Shown here piece after piece: positions 1 through 9,587 of a stretch of 64,000 nucleotides of DNA. Under the pieces are notes generated by a model. The model was not told where the DNA came from and searched no databases. It saw only the letters and a program-made list of their open reading frames with translations. Position 1 is the stretch's first letter. Every line of letters starts with the position of its first letter. The stretch lies in NCBI RefSeq assembly GCF_053078305.1, contig NZ_CP166879.1, one strand, 5' to 3'. The position numbers and the translations under genes are program-made.

Positions 1-251
1 ATATCAGCGAAGTTTCCCGCGTGATGGAAAACCTGCTGCTGGAATCGGCGGATAAACTGCTGCGTTACAAAGGGATGCTGTGGATTGACGGCGAACCTAA
101 CCGCCTGCTGTTCCAGGGCGTCCAGCGCCTCTACAGCGCCGACTGGGACCGCCCGTGGGGCGATGAAAAACCGCATAGCACGATGGTGTTTATCGGGATT
201 CAGTTGCCGGAGGAAGAGATTCGGGCGGCGTTTGCGGGGTTGAGGAAGTAA
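1..251 (+). CDS. yjiA: C-terminal part of a CobW/YjiA-family GTPase; 5' end lies outside the window
   Basis: Reading frame is open from position 3 to the stop at 249-251. The C-terminal sequence (…GEPNRLLFQGVQRLYSADWDRPWGDEKPHSTMVFIGIQLPEEEIRAAF) matches my recollection of E. coli YjiA. Confidence 0.6.
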   Translation, partial: ISEVSRVMENLLLESADKLLRYKGMLWIDGEPNRLLFQGVQRLYSADWDRPWGDEKPHSTMVFIGIQLPEEEIRAAFAGLRK

Positions 252-284
252 TTTTGGATGATGGCCGCCATGTGGCGGCCTGAA

Positions 285-587
285 TTATTTTTTGTTCTGA
301 TCGCGCAGCATCGCTTCACGTAAAATTGCGTTCAGGCGAGTTTGATAGCCTTTACCTGGTCGCTTCAACCATTCCATCACATCAGCATCAATACGCACCG
401 AAGCCTGAGTTTTCAATGGCCGATAAAACTTACCACGTTCGGCGTTAGACCATTGCTCATCGCTGGAAGGTGGGATATCACTGTAATCAATATCTTCGTC
501 GGATTTATTCGCCAGCGCCTTCAGTTCGGCCTCATGCTGCACATCGAGTGTAGAGGGTGCCCCTCGTTTATGTTTAACCATGCTCAT
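285..587 (-). CDS. BrnA-like antitoxin (RHH/DUF4415 type) of a BrnT/BrnA toxin-antitoxin pair
   Basis: About 100 aa from the internal Met (MSMVKHKRG…). The C-terminal motif RIDADVMEWLKRPGKGYQTRLNAILREAM is BrnA-like. The start overlaps the 3' end of the upstream toxin gene, as is usual for TA operons. Confidence 0.6.
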   Translation of the reverse strand: MSMVKHKRGAPSTLDVQHEAELKALANKSDEDIDYSDIPPSSDEQWSNAERGKFYRPLKTQASVRIDADVMEWLKRPGKGYQTRLNAILREAMLRDQNKK

Positions 588-855
588 AGCGACTCCTCTC
601 TTTACGATCTGCTTTTCGTGCACTGATGATTCGAATAATTTCATTTCCGCTTTCGAAACGGATGGTATGCGCAACCAGAATAACCACGATACCGTGAACC
701 AAGCCGATAGTCTGCCAGCGATACTCACCGTTTTCTATGCGATCTTGCTGTGACAAATGTTGTGGATCATCAAACACTAACACCGCATCTTCAAAGCGGA
801 TGCCATGTTTCACCCGATTACTTTTGGCCTTGTTTGCATCCCATTCAAACTCCAT
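574..855 (-). CDS. BrnT-like toxin (DUF497 ribonuclease toxin)
   Basis: 93 aa from MEFEWDANKAKSNRVKHGIRFEDA… with the characteristic RIISARKA motif. It sits upstream of and overlaps the BrnA-like gene. Confidence 0.65.
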   Translation of the reverse strand: MEFEWDANKAKSNRVKHGIRFEDAVLVFDDPQHLSQQDRIENGEYRWQTIGLVHGIVVILVAHTIRFESGNEIIRIISARKADRKERSRYEHG

Positions 856-1057
856 TGGCATAGTTGCCATCCCTAATTGTATATACAAAAATGTATCTAC
901 AATTATTCTGCAATTATAGCGTTGATGTTGGAAATAGCATCACGTTTTGGATAATCAACCATGAAATTGACAATGAGTAAGTTGGACTTGATTCATCCAA
1001 TAGAATTTCTCGCCTGACATGGCACACTAAACACCTCGCTGTCGTTAAGGGATTACC

Positions 1058-2224
1058 GTGAAAAACTATAAAGTTATTACCCCGCTTTTTCCTACCTATG
1101 CACAGGTTAAAGCTATGATGAAAGCCGTCTCAGGCTATTCCCTGAAAGCGGTACGCAATATGATTACCGCCATTCACGAGCAAACCGGTACGCCGCAAAA
1201 ACCCGTTGACTGGTCGGAACCCGACTTGTGGATCAGCGAGCGCTTAACGGGTGAAGATGCCGACATCGCCCGTCGTATTTGGGATACCGATAATCACATA
1301 TTGAACCCGCGCCACAGCTACGGCTGCTACTTATTCCTCAACTATCCCCAGTTTGAGCTGATGGAAAGCACTCCAGATGATACCTGGCAGCCCACCTCGC
1401 GCGGGCAAAAATTCCTGCAAGATGACGAAAAAACGCTGCGTTCACTGGACGACCAGGAAGGAATTCTGCAACTGCTTGAGCTGCTGGCTGGCCGGGAAAT
1501 GTCGCGCCGCGCCGATTTACTGCCGGAATGGCAGGCCTTTTTGCATCAGCATTCCAAATTCGCTTCCGACCGGTCAGCCAAAAGTACGCTCTACTCCCGT
1601 CTCTATAACCTTATCGACCGCGACATGGTTACTCGCGAAGGCATGAGCTATCGCATCACCGATACCGGGCGCGCCTGGCTTGGAAAAGCGTTGCCAGCAC
1701 GAAAAAGCGATCCGCGTAAAGAGCTGCTGGAAGCGGTGAAACGCTACAACGAGCAGCAAAAAGAGCTGCTGCGCGAACAAATCAGCACAATGAACCCGTA
1801 CAAATTTGAACAACTGGTCGGTCAATTACTGGAAGCAATGGGCTACGAGCAGGTCGAAGTGACCAAAGCCTCAGGCGATAAAGGCGTGGACGTGATTGGT
1901 CAGGTGCAGGTCGGCATCACCACTATTACCGAAGTGGTGCAGGTCAAAAGAATGCAGAACACCATCACTCGACCGTATATCGACCAGTTGCGCGGAGCGT
2001 TACCTTACCACAAGGCCATTCGCGGTACGCTTATCACCACCGGGAAATTTGCGGCGAAATGTGCAGAAGCGGCGCTCTTTCCGGGGGCAGCGCCCATTAC
2101 GCTTATCGACGGCGATCGCTTACTGGAACTGTTAATCGAAAATAACGTCGGCATTCGCCGCAGCAATGCAGTGGAATTGCTGGATGTGGATTTGCAGTTG
2201 TTTGATGAGCTGGAGATGGATTAA
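1058..2224 (+). CDS. Mrr-family (type IV, modification-dependent) restriction endonuclease, long form with N-terminal winged-helix region
   Basis: 388-aa ORF with a GTG start. The C-terminal ~150 aa have an Mrr catalytic (PD-(D/E)XK) signature (…GDKGVDVIGQ…EVVQVKR…). It is not the 304-aa K-12 Mrr sequence as I remember it, and it lies 63 bp upstream of hsdM on the same strand. Confidence 0.6.
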   Translation: MKNYKVITPLFPTYAQVKAMMKAVSGYSLKAVRNMITAIHEQTGTPQKPVDWSEPDLWISERLTGEDADIARRIWDTDNHILNPRHSYGCYLFLNYPQFELMESTPDDTWQPTSRGQKFLQDDEKTLRSLDDQEGILQLLELLAGREMSRRADLLPEWQAFLHQHSKFASDRSAKSTLYSRLYNLIDRDMVTREGMSYRITDTGRAWLGKALPARKSDPRKELLEAVKRYNEQQKELLREQISTMNPYKFEQLVGQLLEAMGYEQVEVTKASGDKGVDVIGQVQVGITTITEVVQVKRMQNTITRPYIDQLRGALPYHKAIRGTLITTGKFAAKCAEAALFPGAAPITLIDGDRLLELLIENNVGIRRSNAVELLDVDLQLFDELEMD

Positions 2225-2287: not shown

Positions 2288-3903
2288 ATGGCCAAAGCAC
2301 CAACTAAAAAAGCCAAAGCAAAGAAAGGCTTTGAAGAAACATTATGGGATACCGCAAACCAGCTTCGCGGTAGCGTTGAGTCCTCCGAATACAAGCACGT
2401 GGTGTTGAGCCTCGTATTCCTGAAATTCATCAGCGATAAGTTTGAAGCACGCCGCAAAAAAATGATTGCCGATGGGCAAGCAGACTTCCTTGAGATGGAA
2501 GTGTTCTACCAGCAGGACAACATTTTCTACCTGCCGGAAGAGGCGCGCTGGTCGTTTATCAAACAAAATGCCAAACAGGACGATATTGCGGTTCGTATTG
2601 ACACCGCCCTCTCGACCATTGAGAAACGTAACCCAACCCTGAAAGGCGCGCTGCCAGACAACTACTTCAGCCGTCAGAATCTGGAAACCAAAAAACTGGC
2701 GTCACTGATTGATACCATCGACAACATCGAAACGCTGGCACACGAAACTGACGTTGAAACGTTGTCGAAAGAAGACCTGGTCGGACGCGTTTACGAATAC
2801 TTCCTCGGTAAGTTTGCCGCAACCGAAGGCAAAGGCGGTGGAGAGTTCTACACGCCCAAATGTGTGGTCACGCTGTTAACTGAAATGCTCGAACCCTTCC
2901 AGGGCAAAATTTATGACCCGTGCTGCGGCTCGGCAGGGATGTTCGTGCAGTCGGTGAAGTTCGTCGAGAGCCATCAGGGTAAAAGCCGTGATATCGCGCT
3001 GTATGGTCAGGAACTGACACGACGTATAAACTGGCAAAAATGAACCTCGCCATTCGCGGTCTTTCAGCTAACCTCGGCGAACGACCGGCAGACACCTTCT
3101 TTAGCGACCAGCACCCGGACCTGAAAGCCGACTACATTCTGGCGAACCCGCCGTTCAACCTGAAAGACTGGCGTAATGAAGCCGAATTAACCAAAGACCC
3201 ACGTTTTTCCGGTTATCGTATGCCGCCAACCGGTAACGCCAACTACGGCTGGATTTTGCATATGCTCTCCAAGCTGTCGGCTAACGGTACAGCAGGTTTT
3301 GTGCTGGCAAACGGTTCGATGAGTTCTAACACCAGCGGTGAAGGCGAGATCCGTGCACAGATGATCGAAAATGATCTGATCGACTGCATGATTGCTCTGC
3401 CAGGTCAGTTGTTTTACACCACGCAGATCCCGGTGTGTTTATGGTTTATGACCAAATCGAAGGCTGCCGATCCGGCCAAAGGTTATCGTGATCGTCAGGG
3501 CGAGACGCTGTTTATTGATGCGCGTAACCTCGGCACCATGATTAGCCGCACAACTAAAGAATTAACGGCGGAAGATATTGCCACAATCGCCGATACCTAC
3601 CATGCCTGGCGCAGTACGCCAGAAGAACTGGCTGCACGGATTGCGCGTGGTGACAGCAAGCTGGAAAAATATGAAGACCAGGCAGGCTTCTGCAAAGTTG
3701 CGACCCTGCAAGATATTAAAGATAACGACTACGTGCTGACGCCGGGCCGCTATGTGGGTGCAGCCGAGCAGGAAGAAGACGGCGTGGCATTTGAGACCAA
3801 AATGCGTGAATTGTCGAAGACGTTGTTTGAGCAGATGAAGCAGGCGGAAGAACTGGATCGTGCGATTCGCCAGAATCTGGAGGCGCTGGGTTATGGGGAG
3901 TAA
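2288..3903 (+). pseudogene. hsdM: Type I R-M DNA methyltransferase subunit HsdM, interrupted by a frameshift around 3011-3043
   Basis: Two adjacent ORFs (2288-3043 and 3040-3903) carry the N-terminal HsdM region with the AdoMet motif DPCCGSAGMF and the catalytic NPPF motif respectively. The frame changes inside …[20 protein letters not shown]…, consistent with a single-nucleotide indel. This may be a real mutation or a sequencing error. Confidence 0.7.
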
Positions 3904-5293
3904 AATTACACTCGCTGAAATATGTACAGATATTTCATATGGATATACAGCAAGCGCAACTGCGAAACCTGTTGGTCCTAAATTTCTCCGTATAACAGAT
4001 ATACAAGGAGGCAAGGTCAATTGGGAAAATGTACCTTATTGTGAAATAGATGAGAAAGACTCTTTAAAGTATTTATTGCAAGATGGTGATATCGTAATCG
4101 CAAGAACCGGAAACAGTACTGGCGAAAACTTTATATTTAGCTCAAATACAAAAGTAGTATTTGCATCATACCTAATTCGGTTCCGTATTGATCCAAAGAA
4201 AGCAAATCCCAAATTTATTTGGCTTCAAATGAGAACACCTCAATGGTGGAGTTTTATTGATTCCGTAAAAACTGGCTCAGCCCAAGCTGGAGCTAATGCA
4301 AAGGTTTTGGGACTGTATGAGGTTGAATTACCCGAAAGAAAAATTCAAGACCACATTGCTGATATTGGATTTAATTTACTAAAAAAACAGGATATTAACT
4401 CCAAAATAAACCAAACCCTGGAACAAATGTCCCAAACCCTGTTCAAATCCTGGTTTGTGGATTTTGATCCAGTGATTGATAACGCTCTGGATGCAGGAAA
4501 TCCAATCCCGGAAGCCCTGCAAACTCGCACCAAATTGCGTCAAAAAGTACGTAATAGTGCAGATTTTAAACCACTTCCGGCGGAAATCCGCTCGCTTTTC
4601 CCAAGTGAATTTGAAGAAACGGAGTTGGGTTGGGTACCTAAAGGTTGGGATGTCGTAAAAACTGAAGATATTGCTATAAAAATTGGCATGGGGCCGTTTG
4701 GTTCAAATATTAAAGCATCACAATTTGTTAGTAGCGGTATCCCAATCATTAATGGCCAACAACTTAAAGGGCTTATTTTAGAAAAAAATTTTATCAACTA
4801 TATTACTGATGAGCATGCAAATATTCTCAAGAATTCATTAGTATATGAACACGACATTGTGCTAACTCATCGTGGCACACTTGGTCAAGTTTCATTAATA
4901 CCAAAAAGAAAGGGAAATGAAAAATTTGTAATCTCTCAGAGCCAATTCTACTTAAGAGTTGATAGGAAAAAATGTTCACCTTTTTATATGATACATTTTT
5001 TAAAATCTAGAATTGGTCAGGAAGCATTACTCTCCAATGCTTCTCAGGTGGGGGTTCCTTCTATAGCTCGTCCATCAACCCATTTAAAAAAAATAACTTT
5101 CATAAACCCACCATTATCACTGCATAAACTCTTTGACAATGAATTTGAAGTGATACTAGAAAAAATCATGAATTGCAAAGAGCAGTCACTGGCCCTAACC
5201 GCACTCCGCGACACCCTGCTCCCGAAACTCATCTCCGGTGAGCTATCCCTGGAAGATCTTCCGGATCTCACCACCGATACAGAAGCCGCATAA
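3893..5293 (+). CDS. hsdS: Type I R-M specificity subunit HsdS
   Basis: The start ATG at 3893 overlaps the hsdM stop (ATGGGGAGTAA). The two-target-recognition-domain layout is typical of HsdS. The middle of the gene is AT-rich, as expected for variable recognition domains. Confidence 0.7.
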
Positions 5294-5387
5294 CGCATTT
5301 TGCCCCTGTAAAATCAGGGGCTTTCTGGTAAGGTTTTCTACTGATACAGGAATGCTTACCAGAAATTAGCCAGGGTTGGAGCGCGAT

Positions 5388-8300
5388 ATGAGTCTCTCTT
5401 TCAGTGAAGCAAAATTAGAACAAGCGATCATTGAACTGCTACAGGATCAGGGATATCAACACCTGATCGGCGATAATGTCCCACGTTCGAGTCTCGATCA
5501 GGTCATTATCGAAGACGATCTCCGTCATTATTTAGCGGCACGCTACCAGCCTGATGGCATTACTGAAGAAGAGATTCAGCGACTGATCAAACAGTTCACC
5601 ACGCTTCCGGCCTCCGACCTTTATGAAAGCAACAAAACATTTTGTCGCTGGCTGGCAAATGGTTTTCTGTTCAAACGCGACGATCGGCAACAAAAAGATC
5701 TCTATATTGAATTGCTCGACACCCGGCATCTACCTGCCGCACTGCGCCAGATATTTGACGCCGAAGATGTCCCGTTGCAACAGGCGGCGGAACTCCCGCC
5801 TTCCTATATGAATCCGCCGCTTAACCGGATTAAGATTGTTAACCAGCTTAAAATCTCCGGCAAAGATAATCAGACTCGTATTCCTGACGGCATTCTCTAT
5901 ATCAATGGTCTGCCATTGGTCGTCTTTGAATTTAAAAGTGCGGTGCGCGAGCAGGAAGCCAGTATTGGCGATGCCTGGAAGCAGCTCTGTAAACGCTATC
6001 GCCGGGATATTCCGCAACTGTTTATCTACAACACGCTCTGCATTATTAGCGATGGCGTAAATAACCGGATGGGCAACCTGTTTGCGCCCTATGAATACTT
6101 TTACTCATGGCGCAAAGTCACCGGTAATGAAAACCGTGAACAGGACGGAATTCCATCATTGCACTCAATGATTCAGGGGCTGTTTCATCCGGTACGTCTG
6201 CTGGATGTGATTAAAAACTTTATCTGCTTCCCGGATAAAGCCAAGCACGAAGTAAAAATTTGCTGCCGATATCCGCAGTACTATGCCGCCCGCAAACTCT
6301 ATTACAGCATCAAGCAAGCGCGTAAACCTTTCGGTAGCGGTAAAGGCGGCACCTACTTTGGCGCAACGGGCTGTGGCAAAAGTTACACCATGCAATTTTT
6401 AACGCGTCTTTTGATGAAGAGCGTGGAGTTTGCCAGCCCGACCATTGTTTTGATCACCGACCGCACCGATCTGGACGATCAGCTTTCTGCGCAAATGTGC
6501 AACGCCAAAAATTACATTGGCGACGACACCATCGTTCCTGTTACCAGCCGTGAAGATTTGCGTAATCAACTGGCGGGACGCAATAGTGGCGGTGTATTCC
6601 TGACAACGATCCATAAATTCACCGAAGACACCGAACTCCTTTCTGAACGCAGCAATATCATTTGCATCTCGGACGAAGCACATCGCAGCCAGGTTAACCT
6701 CGACCAGAAAGTCATCGTCGATAAAGAAAGCGGAAAAGTACGCAAAACGTATGGCTTTGCAAAATACCTGCACGATTCACTGCCAAACGCCACCTATGTT
6801 GGCTTTACCGGCACACCGATTGACGCGACGCTCGATGTCTTCGGTGAGGTGATCGACAGTTACACCATGACCGAATCCGTTCAGGATGAAATCACTGTAC
6901 GCATCGTGTACGAAGGCCGTGCGGCTAAAGTGATCCTGGACTCCAGCAAACTGGAAGAAGTCGAAAAGTATTACGAAGAGTGCGCAAACGCAGGCACCAA
7001 TGAGTGGCAAATCGACGAAAGCAAAAAAGCCACCGCAACCATGAATGCGGTACTGGGTGATGAAGATCGGTTAAAAGCCCTCGCGGAAGATTTTGCCAAA
7101 CATTATGAAAAACGCGTAGCCGAAGGTTCCACCGTAAAAGGCAAAGCCATGTTTGTTTGTGCCAGCCGTGAAATTGCCTGGGATTTCTACCGTCAGCTTA
7201 AAGCTATTCGCCCTGCCTGGTTTGAAGTGAAGCAAGCACCCGATGGCGTCGTCCTGACGGAACAGGAACAAAAAGAGTTACCGCCTTCTGAAATGGTGAA
7301 GATGGTCATGACGCGCGGTAAAGATGACGACGAGGCGCTTTATGATTTACTGGGCACAAAAGAATATCGTAAAGAGCTGGATAAGCAATTCAAAAACGCT
7401 AAATCGAATTTCAAAATTGCCATTGTTGTTGATATGTGGCTGACCGGTTTCGACGTCCCGGAACTGGATACCATCTATATTGATAAACCCTTACAAAAAC
7501 ATAATCTTATCCAGACCATTTCTCGCGTTAACCGTAAACTGGAAGGCAAAAGTAAAGGGTTAGTGGTGGACTACATCGGCATTAAAAGCCAGATGAACCA
7601 GGCACTGGCAATGTATTCCCGCATTGATGCCACCAACTTTGAAGATATTCAGCAATCGGTAATAGAAGTTAAAAACCATCTCGATTTGTTGGGGCAAGTC
7701 TTTTACGAATTTGACAGTCGGGATTATTTTAGTGGTGAGCCACAAGCGCAATTATCCTGCCTCAACCGCGCGGCGGAATTTGTTCTGCGTACCCAGAAAG
7801 TTGAACGTCGTTTTATGGGACTGGTTAAACGCATGAAAGCCGCCTACGACGTCTGCTGCGGCAGCGAAGCATTATCACAGACAGAACGTGACTATATTCA
7901 CTATTATCTTGCTGTTCGTTCAATTGTTTTCAAACTGACGAAAGGTGACGCACCGGATGTTACCCAGATGAATGCACGCGTTCGTGAAATGATTGCAGAA
8001 GCGTTAAAAGCTGATGGCGTAGAAGAAATTTATTTTCTTGGGGATAAAAAAGCGGAATCCATCGATATTTTTGACGAAGATTATCTGGCGCGAATTAACA
8101 AAATCAAACTTCCGGCAACAAAGATCCAGTTATTACAAAAATTACTGGAAAAAGCGATCAGCGACTTCAAGAAAGTGAACCAGTTACAAGGGATTAACTT
8201 CACCCGCCGCTTCCAGGCGATTATAGATCGTTATAATGAGCGGCGAGAAGATGATGTACTCAACGGTGAAGAATTCGATACATTCAGTCAGGAAATGACC

Positions 8301-8651
8301 GATATTATCTATGATATTAAAACCGAAATGGGCACCTGGGCCGATTTAGGTATTGATATTGAAGAAAAAGCGTTTTTCGACATTCTTGCTCATATGCGCG
8401 ATAAATATCAGTTCACCTATGACGATGAAAAAATGCTGTCACTGGCAAAAGAGATGAAAAGCGTGGTTGACAACACATCGAAATATCCTGACTGGAGTAA
8501 ACGCGATGATATTAAAGCGAAACTGAAAGTTGAACTTATTCTGCTTCTACACAAGCATAAGTTCCCGCCAGTAGCGAATGATGATGTTTATATGGGTGTG
8601 CTGGCACAGGCAGAGAATTTTAAAGAACACCATATGAATGCTTTAAATTAA
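5388..8651 (+). CDS. hsdR: Type I R-M restriction subunit HsdR (SF2 helicase/nuclease)
   Basis: About 1087 aa with helicase motifs GATGCGKS (Walker A), DEAH (ICISDEAHRSQ), GFTGTP and LTGFDVP…ISRVNR. The ATG at 5388 has a GGAG ribosome-binding site 6 nt upstream; the ORF list used an upstream TTG. Confidence 0.75.
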   Translation: MSLSFSEAKLEQAIIELLQDQGYQHLIGDNVPRSSLDQVIIEDDLRHYLAARYQPDGITEEEIQRLIKQFTTLPASDLYESNKTFCRWLANGFLFKRDDRQQKDLYIELLDTRHLPAALRQIFDAEDVPLQQAAELPPSYMNPPLNRIKIVNQLKISGKDNQTRIPDGILYINGLPLVVFEFKSAVREQEASIGDAWKQLCKRYRRDIPQLFIYNTLCIISDGVNNRMGNLFAPYEYFYSWRKVTGNENREQDGIPSLHSMIQGLFHPVRLLDVIKNFICFPDKAKHEVKICCRYPQYYAARKLYYSIKQARKPFGSGKGGTYFGATGCGKSYTMQFLTRLLMKSVEFASPTIVLITDRTDLDDQLSAQMCNAKNYIGDDTIVPVTSREDLRNQLAGRNSGGVFLTTIHKFTEDTELLSERSNIICISDEAHRSQVNLDQKVIVDKESGKVRKTYGFAKYLHDSLPNATYVGFTGTPIDATLDVFGEVIDSYTMTESVQDEITVRIVYEGRAAKVILDSSKLEEVEKYYEECANAGTNEWQIDESKKATATMNAVLGDEDRLKALAEDFAKHYEKRVAEGSTVKGKAMFVCASREIAWDFYRQLKAIRPAWFEVKQAPDGVVLTEQEQKELPPSEMVKMVMTRGKDDDEALYDLLGTKEYRKELDKQFKNAKSNFKIAIVVDMWLTGFDVPELDTIYIDKPLQKHNLIQTISRVNRKLEGKSKGLVVDYIGIKSQMNQALAMYSRIDATNFEDIQQSVIEVKNHLDLLGQVFYEFDSRDYFSGEPQAQLSCLNRAAEFVLRTQKVERRFMGLVKRMKAAYDVCCGSEALSQTERDYIHYYLAVRSIVFKLTKGDAPDVTQMNARVREMIAEALKADGVEEIYFLGDKKAESIDIFDEDYLARINKIKLPATKIQLLQKLLEKAISDFKKVNQLQGINFTRRFQAIIDRYNERREDDVLNGEEFDTFSQEMTDIIYDIKTEMGTWADLGIDIEEKAFFDILAHMRDKYQFTYDDEKMLSLAKEMKSVVDNTSKYPDWSKRDDIKAKLKVELILLLHKHKFPPVANDDVYMGVLAQAENFKEHHMNALN

Positions 8652-8658
8652 TTATGAA

Positions 8659-8692
8659 GGCCGGATACACTTTGTTATCCGGCCATTCTGAA
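8659..8692 (+). terminator. Probable intrinsic terminator after hsdR
   Basis: Stem-loop GGCCGGATA…TATCCGGCC starts 8 nt after the hsdR stop and is followed by an A/T-rich tail. Confidence 0.45.
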
Positions 8693-8770
8693 TTAACGTT
8701 AATTTCTCTTCCAGATCTTTCCAGTAACGCTTTTATTATTTTCTATTTTTAGCTGGACTTTCCCTGTATT

Positions 8771-8790
8771 TACTGATGATATATCCAGGT
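8771..8790 (+). promoter_or_regulatory. Candidate LexA (SOS) box upstream of symE
   Basis: TACTGatgatatatcCAGgt fits the CTG-N10-CAG LexA consensus and lies about 80 bp upstream of the symE start. symE is known to be SOS-induced. Confidence 0.45.
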
Positions 8791-8794
8791 ATTT

Positions 8795-8871
8795 AGCGCG
8801 GTGCGGATGTGCGCCAACACACCCGCACCGCTAATCACAATCACTATTTATAGGGAATAGCAGTTATGACT
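8795..8871 (-). ncRNA. symR: Probable SymR antisense sRNA covering the symE ribosome-binding site and start codon (boundaries approximate)
   Basis: On the minus strand inside the 5' end of symE there is a sigma70-like promoter (TTCTGC-N17-TAGAAT) that would start transcription about 3-6 nt inside symE and read antisense across its RBS. This matches the known SymR arrangement. Confidence 0.4.
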
Positions 8872-9204
8872 GATACGCATTCTATTGCACAACCGTTCGA
8901 AGCAGAAGTCTCCCCGGCAAATAACCGTCAATTAACCGTGAGTTATGCGAGCCGCTACCCGGATTACAGCCGTATTCCCGCCATCACCCTGAAAGGTCAG
9001 TGGCTGGAAGCCGCCGGTTTTGCCACTGGCACGGCGGTAGATGTCAAAGTGATGGAAGGCTGTATTGTCCTCACCGCCCAACCACCCGCCATCGAAGAGA
9101 GCGAACTGATGCAGTCGCTGCGAAAGGTGTGCAAGCTATCGGTGCGTAAACAAAAGCAGGTGCAGGAATTTATTGGGGTGATTAGTAGCAAAACGCCACG
9201 CTAA
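8866..9204 (+). CDS. symE: SymE, SOS-induced type I toxin (AbrB-fold)
   Basis: 112-aa [55 protein letters not shown]… that I recognise as SymE (YjiW). Confidence 0.8.
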
Positions 9205-9212
9205 GTTTCTCT

Positions 9213-9238
9213 CCCCTTCCCCACACGGGAAGGGGAAT
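9213..9238. terminator. GC-rich hairpin between convergent symE and yjiS (possible bidirectional terminator)
   Basis: CCCCTTCCC-acac-GGGAAGGGG inverted repeat with a 9-bp stem between the two convergent stop codons. The U-tract is weak. Confidence 0.35.
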
Positions 9239-9246
9239 TTCCCCCC

Positions 9247-9411
9247 TCACTCCACATCCTCCCTGCGTAACCCGATATCCCTCAACCGTTCATCACTCAT
9301 CTGCTGTAACACCCGTCGGGCCTGCATTTGCCGCCGCCAACGCCTCACCGCCTGCCAGAGTTGTACAAGTCTGATAAACGGCGTTTTGGCTTTGTTTTCG
9401 TGAAATTCCAT
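9247..9411 (-). CDS. yjiS: DUF1127 small protein YjiS
   Basis: 54-aa minus-strand ORF below the ORF-track cutoff: MEFHENKAKTPFIRLVQLWQAVRRWRRQMQARRVLQQMSDERLRDIGLRREDVE. It matches YjiS as I remember it. Confidence 0.65.
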   Translation of the reverse strand: MEFHENKAKTPFIRLVQLWQAVRRWRRQMQARRVLQQMSDERLRDIGLRREDVE

Positions 9412-9587
9412 CTGCTGCCTCCTCATCTTTCAGAGGCTTCATCATCCGTCTTCTGGCAGTTCACAATACAGATGCAAATATTAGTTTTATTTAACATACA
9501 GACAGGTTAAAACAGCATCTGCATCCGGTTTTTTAGCCTCATCTGTACCGGTTTTTCTCTCTGTATGGTCCAAATAAGGAATACAGC

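Follow-up and report, generated by a model that had tools for sequence, protein, structure and literature searches.

The two overlapping genes beside yjiA at the start of the window (the whole 64,000-nt stretch of DNA analysed here) most probably constitute an intact chromosomal BrnT/BrnA type II toxin-antitoxin (TA) operon that works by the family mechanism set out below, and we put the probability of this reading as a whole at about 0.87. The pair displays every defining feature that can be tested at the level of sequence and on these grounds is a genuine module of this type; nothing in it departs from the known kind. Its RNase activity, toxicity and DNA binding are expected from its homologues. 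The pair as such is already known, as it is annotated in RefSeq and the structure of a Salmonella orthologue has been deposited. Our analysis adds the synteny of brnTA with yjiA as an ancient fixture of the edge of the enterobacterial immigration-control region, pinpoints a very strongly conserved candidate operator and documents a clean toxin-first decay in natural E. coli populations. The locus is of little importance beyond its correct annotation, and the pair may serve as a convenient E. coli model in which to study BrnTA and as a candidate for phage-defence testing.

As proposed in the first-pass annotation, two overlapping open reading frames lie on the minus strand at this place, and the downstream one, described there as roughly 100 amino acids long, has exactly that length (Table 1). 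The toxin had been read as a 93-residue protein starting at position 855 (MEFEWD...), which is two codons short. Its frame contains three in-frame ATGs, at 870, 861 and 855, of which ATG 861 (MPMEFEWD...) is the best-supported start, because it is preceded by an AGGGA ribosome-binding site at a distance of 8 nt, PGAP picks the same start in Nissle 1917 (288-nt CDS) and the solved Salmonella homologue opens with PMEFEWD. Among orthologues this ribosome-binding site is kept as AGGGA or AGGA. The 3' end of brnT runs over the start of brnA by 14 nt, implying that translation of the two genes is coupled. The ATG starts, the lengths of 95 and 100 residues and the 14-nt overlap are unchanged in 20 of 20 Enterobacteriaceae orthologues (L004-L025), and in a tblastn survey brnA follows brnT in 66 of 80 related loci. 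The genes are thus small, adjacent, co-oriented and conserved as a pair, as in a type II TA operon.

Table 1. Coordinates and basis of the features at the brnTA locus (window positions unless given as residues).
Feature	Position	Strand	Description and basis
brnA	285..587	-	100-aa BrnA-family (DUF4415/COG3514) antitoxin, ATG start; ORF list and sequence
brnT	574..861	-	95-aa BrnT-family (DUF497/COG2929) toxin, predicted RelE-like ribonuclease; first gene of the operon; ORF list and sequence
brnT/brnA overlap	574..587	-	14 nt; brnT 3' end over brnA start
brnA start and RBS	ATG 587..585; RBS 593..600	-	RBS GAGAGGAG inside brnT; sequence
brnT RBS	870..874	-	AGGGA, 8 nt 5' of ATG 861
BrnA N-terminal toxin-binding segment (putative)	residues ~14-57		match to 7VD7 chain B
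BrnA C-terminal ribbon-helix-helix domain (predicted)	residues ~58-100		tandem-fusion model
Putative BrnA/BrnTA operator	874..905		imperfect palindrome TAATTGTAGATACA-tttt-TGTATATACAATTA; inverted and direct repeats
Promoter-proximal core of the operator	878..886		GTATATACA
Third direct copy, weaker	907..916		TAATTGCAGA
Putative -10 of brnTA	913..918	-	TATAAT; tentative
GC-rich hairpin	263..280		GGCCGCCATGTGGCGGCC, between convergent yjiA and brnA; terminator scan
Mrr-family nuclease	1058..2224		388 aa; Mrr_cat E=1.6e-29

The family assignment, which had been suggested from the appearance of the two proteins together with a profile search as its check, is borne out by that search. With the Pfam family BrnT_toxin (PF04365; cutoff 34.5 bits) BrnT scores 87.6 bits (E=6.9e-25) and spans profile positions 1-77 of 77, and with BrnA_antitoxin (PF14384; cutoff 26.1 bits) BrnA scores 63.8 bits (E=2e-17) and spans positions 1-68 of 68. 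This is further supported by PHROGs matches to a 'ribonuclease toxin of AT system' and an 'antitoxin'; NCBIfam gave no match for either protein. Over its full length BrnT shares 85% identity with chain A of PDB entry 7VD7, described in Foldseek as 'Toxin - Antitoxin complex from Salmonella enterica serovar Typhimurium' and released in 2022, the toxin of which is identical to the STM4528 homologue at 94 of 95 positions. By its identity to this solved chain, BrnT would in effect share the RelE-like fold predicted for it, in which a four-stranded antiparallel sheet packs on short helices. A direct phmmer search also links BrnT to Brucella BrnT (3U97, E=4.5e-4); a match to the same entry obtained with a profile was discarded as circular, the Brucella sequence being already in the alignment (A2) behind that profile.

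All invariant columns of a 32-member family alignment that includes Brucella BrnT (N15, K18, H19, F23, R48, G53, S80, R82 and E88) are present in the E. coli toxin, and the RIISARKA motif singled out earlier is indeed found at residues 77-84, in nearly invariant family columns. In Brucella BrnT the residues D6, E7, K9, R41 and E78 are reported as important for RNase activity (PMC5086665); four of these five are conserved as D8, K11, R48 and E88. The fifth, E7, corresponds to A9 in the E. coli protein, in a column that varies across the 32 family members, and its replacement would count only weakly against RNase activity. The Brucella K16-H17 pair is kept as K18/H19 (residue list in PMC10714953), and the residues that the Acidovorax homologue was shown to require (K17, H18 and E86; PMC10714953) correspond to K18, H19 and E88.

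The antitoxin divides into two parts. Residues 14-57 of BrnA align end to end with 7VD7 chain B (~80% identity, E=1.5e-16), and because this chain is the antitoxin fragment co-crystallised with the toxin, the segment is the probable toxin-binding part of BrnA. For the remainder, a ribbon-helix-helix (RHH) antitoxin has been proposed for the BrnA family (PMC2701414, PMC11980606). A tandem fusion of BrnA residues 56-100, modelled with 25 orthologues, folds into strand-helix-helix twice (pLDDT ~87-93, pTM 0.75) (E4-12/H13-20/H26-44). Its best PDB matches are F-plasmid relaxosome chains (110-120 residues, probability 1.0, TM ~0.6), and a weak match to VirC2 appears at rank 9 (E=1.1, probability 0.21); these we take to be single-chain tandem RHH proteins (TraY and VirC2). 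The model supports an RHH dimer formed by the C-terminal half of BrnA. The AlphaFold model of the BrnA monomer (pLDDT 75, pTM 0.33) has 7VD7_B as its sole PDB match and is uninformative on this point; a profile search of PDB sequences with BrnA returned no RHH protein, and lax Pfam scans of BrnA returned no other RHH family.

We then compared the neighbourhood of the pair with that in other genomes. The window opens with the 3' end of yjiA (bases 1-251, CobW_C domain), 97% identical to K-12 yjiA. The order yjiX-yjiA, brnA<brnT, 388-aa Mrr-family nuclease, hsdM-hsdS-hsdR and symE/symR is shared by the window, Nissle 1917 and mip270_04, the closest genome (99.4%). In K-12 MG1655 mrr is convergent on yjiA with no gene between them and brnTA is absent, as the first-pass annotation had supposed of K-12. 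Homology between the window and K-12 breaks off at position 251, with the yjiA stop codon, and is not seen again before symE (8735), which places brnTA inside the segment that differs between alleles of the immigration-control region. The restriction gene on the other side of a 196-bp gap, divergent from brnT, belongs to the Mrr family, but by sequence it is a different gene from K-12 mrr, with which it shares only ~30% identity over 173 residues. The same nuclease matches the PADLOC models PDC-S02, a candidate defence family (E=6.8e-207), and mREase_IV.

Within E. coli the pair is widespread. Of the 5426 complete genomes searched, 5382 contain the yjiA part of the query and 2112 (39%) contain brnTA, always as a single copy and on the chromosome in 2111 of the 2112. 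Carriers are annotated by RefSeq with the names 'BrnT family toxin' and 'BrnA antitoxin family protein', and the exact window proteins are found under those family names on at least 1000 public contigs. The earlier description of the pair as accessory cargo therefore stands at the level of the species, in which it is present in 2112 of 5426 genomes and absent from K-12; it does not stand if cargo is taken to mean a recent arrival, as the linkage to yjiA extends across genera. In a scan of one genome per species, brnT-brnA followed by convergent yjiA is found in several Citrobacter species, an Enterobacteriaceae MAG and Pluralibacter, and in Enterobacter no more than a few kb separate brnTA from yjiA. 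In Salmonella the orthologues STM4528/STM4529 (LT2 locus tags) lie between a K-12-type mrr and yjiA. The E. albertii contig ends inside brnA, and its Mrr-like/hsdM/hsdR side matches the window. The gene beyond brnT varies, being the Mrr-like nuclease, a K-12-type mrr or, in strain S21EC, Fic and GmrSD. The stable linkage is thus that between brnTA and yjiA, and the K-12 arrangement is a derived state that lacks brnTA. Because this linkage spans genera while the genes on the restriction side differ, brnTA is, as judged from synteny, an old resident of the yjiA border, and recent horizontal acquisition is rejected.

The divergence of the pair from its relatives exceeds that of the neighbouring core gene. 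Between the window and Citrobacter, dS of brnTA is saturated (>1.5), and yjiA in the same loci gives values of 0.58-0.99, suggesting that brnTA may have an older history than yjiA or one with more recombination; a deeper allelic history or exchange may account for this. Homologues also occur in 762 plasmid records, with 72-74% identity on small enterobacterial plasmids. Few plasmid records reach at least 94%, and these comprise replicons of 655-834 kb and one 22-kb record. In two distant proteobacterial MAGs (L042 and L047) a 58-60%-identical brnT-brnA pair sits between hsdM and hsdS of a type I restriction-modification (R-M) operon, where, as read from the ORF coordinates, it overlaps hsdM in both and hsdS in L042.

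Both genes are under strong purifying selection with dN/dS below 0.1. Values of dN are 0.08-0.13 for brnT and 0.10-0.16 for brnA, dS is saturated (>1.5), and ω is ~0.03-0.08 wherever it is computable across genera. In natural E. coli populations the two genes nevertheless differ in how often they are lost. Of 2112 carrier genomes, 2110 retain at least 80% of the segment specific to brnA (285..573); for the segment specific to brnT (588..861) the count is 1780 of 2111. The toxin has thus been lost in ~16% of E. coli carriers, counted as genomes, which are not clonally independent, and not as independent events. By these segment counts, which were not resolved genome by genome, there is no sign of brnT surviving without brnA. 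Two forms of loss were examined. Strain D8 carries an internal deletion of brnT (window 597..758) with brnA intact, a type for which we estimate ~215 carriers by subtraction only (331 minus 116). In strain S21EC the stretch 637..924 is replaced and followed by Fic and GmrSD, so that the 5' half of brnT and the promoter/operator are gone and brnA is intact; this junction occurs in 116 genomes. Loss of the toxin first with retention of the antidote fits the pattern that an active toxin would predict, an asymmetry that is partly confounded by position, with brnT facing the hypervariable restriction region and brnA facing the core gene yjiA.

With regard to its role, brnTA most likely perpetuates itself by addiction as a resident of the yjiA border of the immigration-control region, and a selfish addictive resident is our default reading. 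The addiction or abortive-infection role raised in the first-pass annotation is plausible, as is a role in stabilising the island, in view of the location in a defence island. A contribution to phage defence is possible. In its strong form, the pair would be mainly an abortive-infection element acting together with the restriction systems next to it, such that the shutdown of host transcription by a phage depletes BrnA and frees BrnT, leading to death or arrest. Its position at the edge of the immigration-control region beside the Mrr-like nuclease (PDC-S02), a type I R-M system and symE/symR is in line with this, as are the two distant loci between hsdM and hsdS, where the association with R-M recurs independently, and the Fic and GmrSD neighbours in S21EC. 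Yet the cross-genus linkage is to yjiA and not to a particular defence gene, ~16% of carriers do without the toxin, and the literature searched yielded no phage-protection data; moreover, TA modules are found everywhere, so that their neighbours say little about their function. We therefore consider such cooperation unlikely. That the pair represents a known defence system is rejected, since neither BrnT nor BrnA matches any PADLOC-DB v2 model at E<=0.01.

A related proposal makes brnTA a 'gatekeeper' of the yjiA border that is tied to the restriction systems, either through post-segregational stabilisation of R-M cassettes or as an abortive-infection back-up, which would be triggered when restriction fails. 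It is suggested by the retention of the pair in Escherichia, Salmonella and Citrobacter together with its independent embedding between hsdM and hsdS in distant proteobacteria, and we regard it as improbable.

The pair might alternatively be an evolutionary relic, in which an attenuated or non-toxic BrnT persists through its linkage to yjiA and the sole function of BrnA is perhaps that of a transcription factor or of an anti-addiction antidote to plasmid-encoded BrnT. Almost universal retention of brnA even where brnT is deleted would agree with this, as would the homologues on small plasmids (72-74% identity), against which a chromosomal BrnA could protect, and the observation that deletions of chromosomal TA systems are often without phenotype (PMC7280312). 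However, brnT of the window is full-length and has every family-invariant residue, and ω of ~0.03-0.08 across genera is unexpected for a dead gene. In S21EC-type strains brnA has lost its promoter/operator and may be unexpressed; passive retention fits those strains and not the window strain. For the latter, decay into a relic is quite unlikely, and an active addictive pair remains our preferred reading.

The 196-bp gap upstream of brnT holds a strongly conserved palindrome located between the putative -10 element and the brnT ribosome-binding site. Its promoter-proximal core shows no change across the upstream regions of 27 orthologues, which range from Escherichia to Xenorhabdus, Photorhabdus and Erwinia, in a context where the flanking DNA upstream of the palindrome is unalignable between groups and synonymous sites are saturated. 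Changes in the palindrome arms are uncompensated across the 27 orthologues. The palindrome thus appears to be conserved as sequence and not as pairing, which favours a DNA site recognised by a protein, because the variation is one-sided, uncompensated and no better than in shuffled controls. This site is likely to be the BrnA operator by analogy with Brucella, where BrnA/BrnTA is reported to bind its own promoter (PMC5086665, PMC10714953). The Acidovorax antitoxin did not bind its promoter (PMC10714953), showing that autorepression is not universal in the BrnTA family.

An RNA hairpin in the 5' leader, controlling mRNA stability or translation, was weighed against a BrnA operator as the reason for conservation of the palindrome. 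For the 58-nt leader, folding predicts one stable hairpin plus another, small stem with the start codon in it (-16.4 kcal/mol, z=-4.3), a stability reached by 0 of 200 shuffled sequences. The alignment of the 27 orthologues argues against a function of this structure: one arm, GTATATACA, is invariant and the other varies without compensation, double changes occur in 3 of 14 pairs, no more than in shuffles, of which 394 of 500 attain this number, and the share of paired cells is 78%, compared to 76% in shuffles. There is also no match to an Rfam family, and the palindrome may not be fully transcribed. Taken together, an RNA element is an unlikely explanation, and we retain the palindrome as a candidate BrnA operator.

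The -10 element is kept as TATAAT or TATACT in the orthologues of Escherichia, Salmonella, Citrobacter, Klebsiella and Raoultella, where an upstream block, GTGAnGCTATTTCCAACA, is conserved together with it. Its assignment is tentative because a scan with the sigma-70 consensus gave no minus-strand promoter, and no convincing -35 was found for brnTA. At the other end of the operon, the GC-rich hairpin is, judging from the T-run on the plus strand, the terminator of yjiA and possibly terminates brnTA as well.

The mechanism proposed for the pair is as follows. Gene structure, family membership, selection, synteny, the conserved palindrome and the pattern of loss come from the present analysis, and four of its properties are carried over by analogy from the Brucella, Acidovorax and Salmonella homologues: the RNase activity of the toxin, the 2:2 stoichiometry of the complex, repression of the operon by its own product and lability of the antitoxin. 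The genes brnT and brnA would be co-transcribed from the promoter in the 196-bp gap and their translation coupled through the overlap. BrnT would act as a small RelE-fold ribonuclease that stops growth by RNA degradation and a block of translation. The N-terminal segment of BrnA (~residues 14-57) would wrap around the toxin and neutralise it, while BrnA is predicted to dimerise via its C-terminal RHH domain. By analogy, the RHH dimer would bind the conserved TGTATATACA palindromes over the -10 element and leader and thereby repress the operon. When BrnA is degraded or not replenished, BrnT would be freed.

The BrnT/BrnA family was predicted in 2009 by Makarova et al. (PMC2701414) and characterised in Brucella in 2012 by Heaton et al., as summarised in PMC5086665 and PMC10714953. 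The closest known counterpart of the E. coli pair is Salmonella STM4528/STM4529 (7VD7), an orthologue whose genes likewise encode 95 and 100 residues, with the same 14-nt overlap, the same slot beside yjiA and the same upstream palindrome. It differs in its surroundings, which are K-12-type mrr/hsdR/hsdM in Salmonella, in contrast to the 388-aa Mrr-like nuclease and the differently oriented hsdMSR of the E. coli window. A literature search yielded no publication describing 7VD7 and nothing relevant on STM4528 or on BrnT with yjiA; experimental papers on the BrnTA pair of either E. coli or Salmonella were likewise not found.

The Brucella abortus pair (3U97) shares with the E. coli one the Pfam families, the toxin-first order, the RHH antitoxin, four of the five RNase residues and the K-H pair. 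Its toxin is only ~33% identical to E. coli BrnT, which has ~15 additional residues in the middle, giving a longer β-hairpin region. Stress induction and the 2:2 stoichiometry of the Brucella pair go back to Heaton et al. 2012, as summarised in PMC5086665 and PMC10714953. The Acidovorax citrulli pair Aave_1720/Aave_1719 has a BrnT-like RNase toxin with equivalent K, H and E residues, and its antitoxin is reported to have RNase activity itself (PMC10714953), whereas nothing in the E. coli pair suggests such an activity of the antitoxin. The Acinetobacter baumannii pair SplTA belongs to the same two families (DUF497/COG3514; PMC4963858) and shows, together with other plasmid-encoded BrnTA pairs, that such modules can function as TA systems on plasmids. 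SplTA and its kin are plasmid-borne and less than 60% identical to the E. coli pair, the lineage of which is essentially chromosomal.

Homology to the E. coli K-12 chromosome, which lacks the BrnT/BrnA toxin-antitoxin pair (brnTA), resumes at 8735..9183, where symE and the symR antisense RNA bound the variable restriction region on its far side. With these two genes at that end, the restriction island is flanked on both sides by toxin-antitoxin-like modules. The G+C content of the whole 64-kb window is 46.4%, while roughly 50.8% is typical of E. coli; this low value is in keeping with the presence of much horizontally exchanged material in the region.

Features of the variable region and of two brnTA-containing type I restriction-modification (R-M) loci from other genomes (L042 and L047, in their own coordinates)
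Feature	Coordinates	Strand	Remarks
388-aa nuclease with Mrr_cat	1058..2224	+	only about 30% identity to K-12 Mrr
hsdM, both ORFs	2288..3903
hsdM, first ORF	2288..3043
hsdM, second ORF	3040..3903
symE	about 8774..9112	+
symR antisense RNA	8795..8871	-	Rfam RF01809, 94.3 bits
L042, hsdM/brnT-brnA/hsdS	4794..10176
L047, hsdM/brnT-brnA/hsdS	3578..8165

Along its whole length the Mrr-like nuclease next to brnT matches PDC-S02, a candidate defence family in PADLOC (E=6.8e-207), and Pfam gave no assignment for its extra N-terminal domain of ~240 aa. Its gene and brnT share a divergent promoter region of 196 bp with 37% GC, and BrnA could therefore conceivably also affect expression of the nuclease gene.

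In the adjoining type I R-M system, hsdM lacks 4 bp (CAGC) at about 3017 relative to the intact 1620-nt gene of E. coli Nissle 1917, and this deletion breaks it into two ORFs. The hsdM genes of mip270_04, the closest genome, and of E. coli D8 are likewise annotated as 'frameshifted'. Judged from these reading frames, the system beside brnTA is probably inactive for modification and restriction alike.

The association of BrnTA with type I R-M systems is recurrent and independent of the enterobacterial locus. In each of two uncultured-proteobacterium MAGs (L042 and L047), a type I R-M operon has a brnT-brnA pair (58-60% identical) between its hsdM and hsdS genes. In both of them hsdM and brnT overlap, as do brnA and hsdS in L042, where the hsdM reading frame is fragmented; L047 carries an additional DUF2442 gene.

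Compared with Citrobacter, dS is saturated (>1.5) for brnT and brnA (285..861) but only 0.58-0.99 for the adjoining yjiA (loci L004-L018), although synteny is kept across these loci. The higher brnTA values could stem from alleles of greater age, from exchange between lineages or from weak codon bias; the GC content is 46% for brnTA and 57% for the yjiA tail.

In two Raoultella orthologues (L016 and L020) the nearly invariant Asp8 of BrnT, which corresponds to D6 among the Brucella RNase residues, is replaced by Tyr, and Glu4 by Gly. They may be attenuated toxin alleles within otherwise intact operons.

An intact 'orphan' brnA, with brnT deleted or truncated, is found in about 331 complete E. 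coli genomes, among them D8 and S21EC. The 116 genomes of the S21EC type have also lost the brnTA promoter as well as the operator, the candidate palindrome upstream of brnT, and Fic and GmrSD genes come next.
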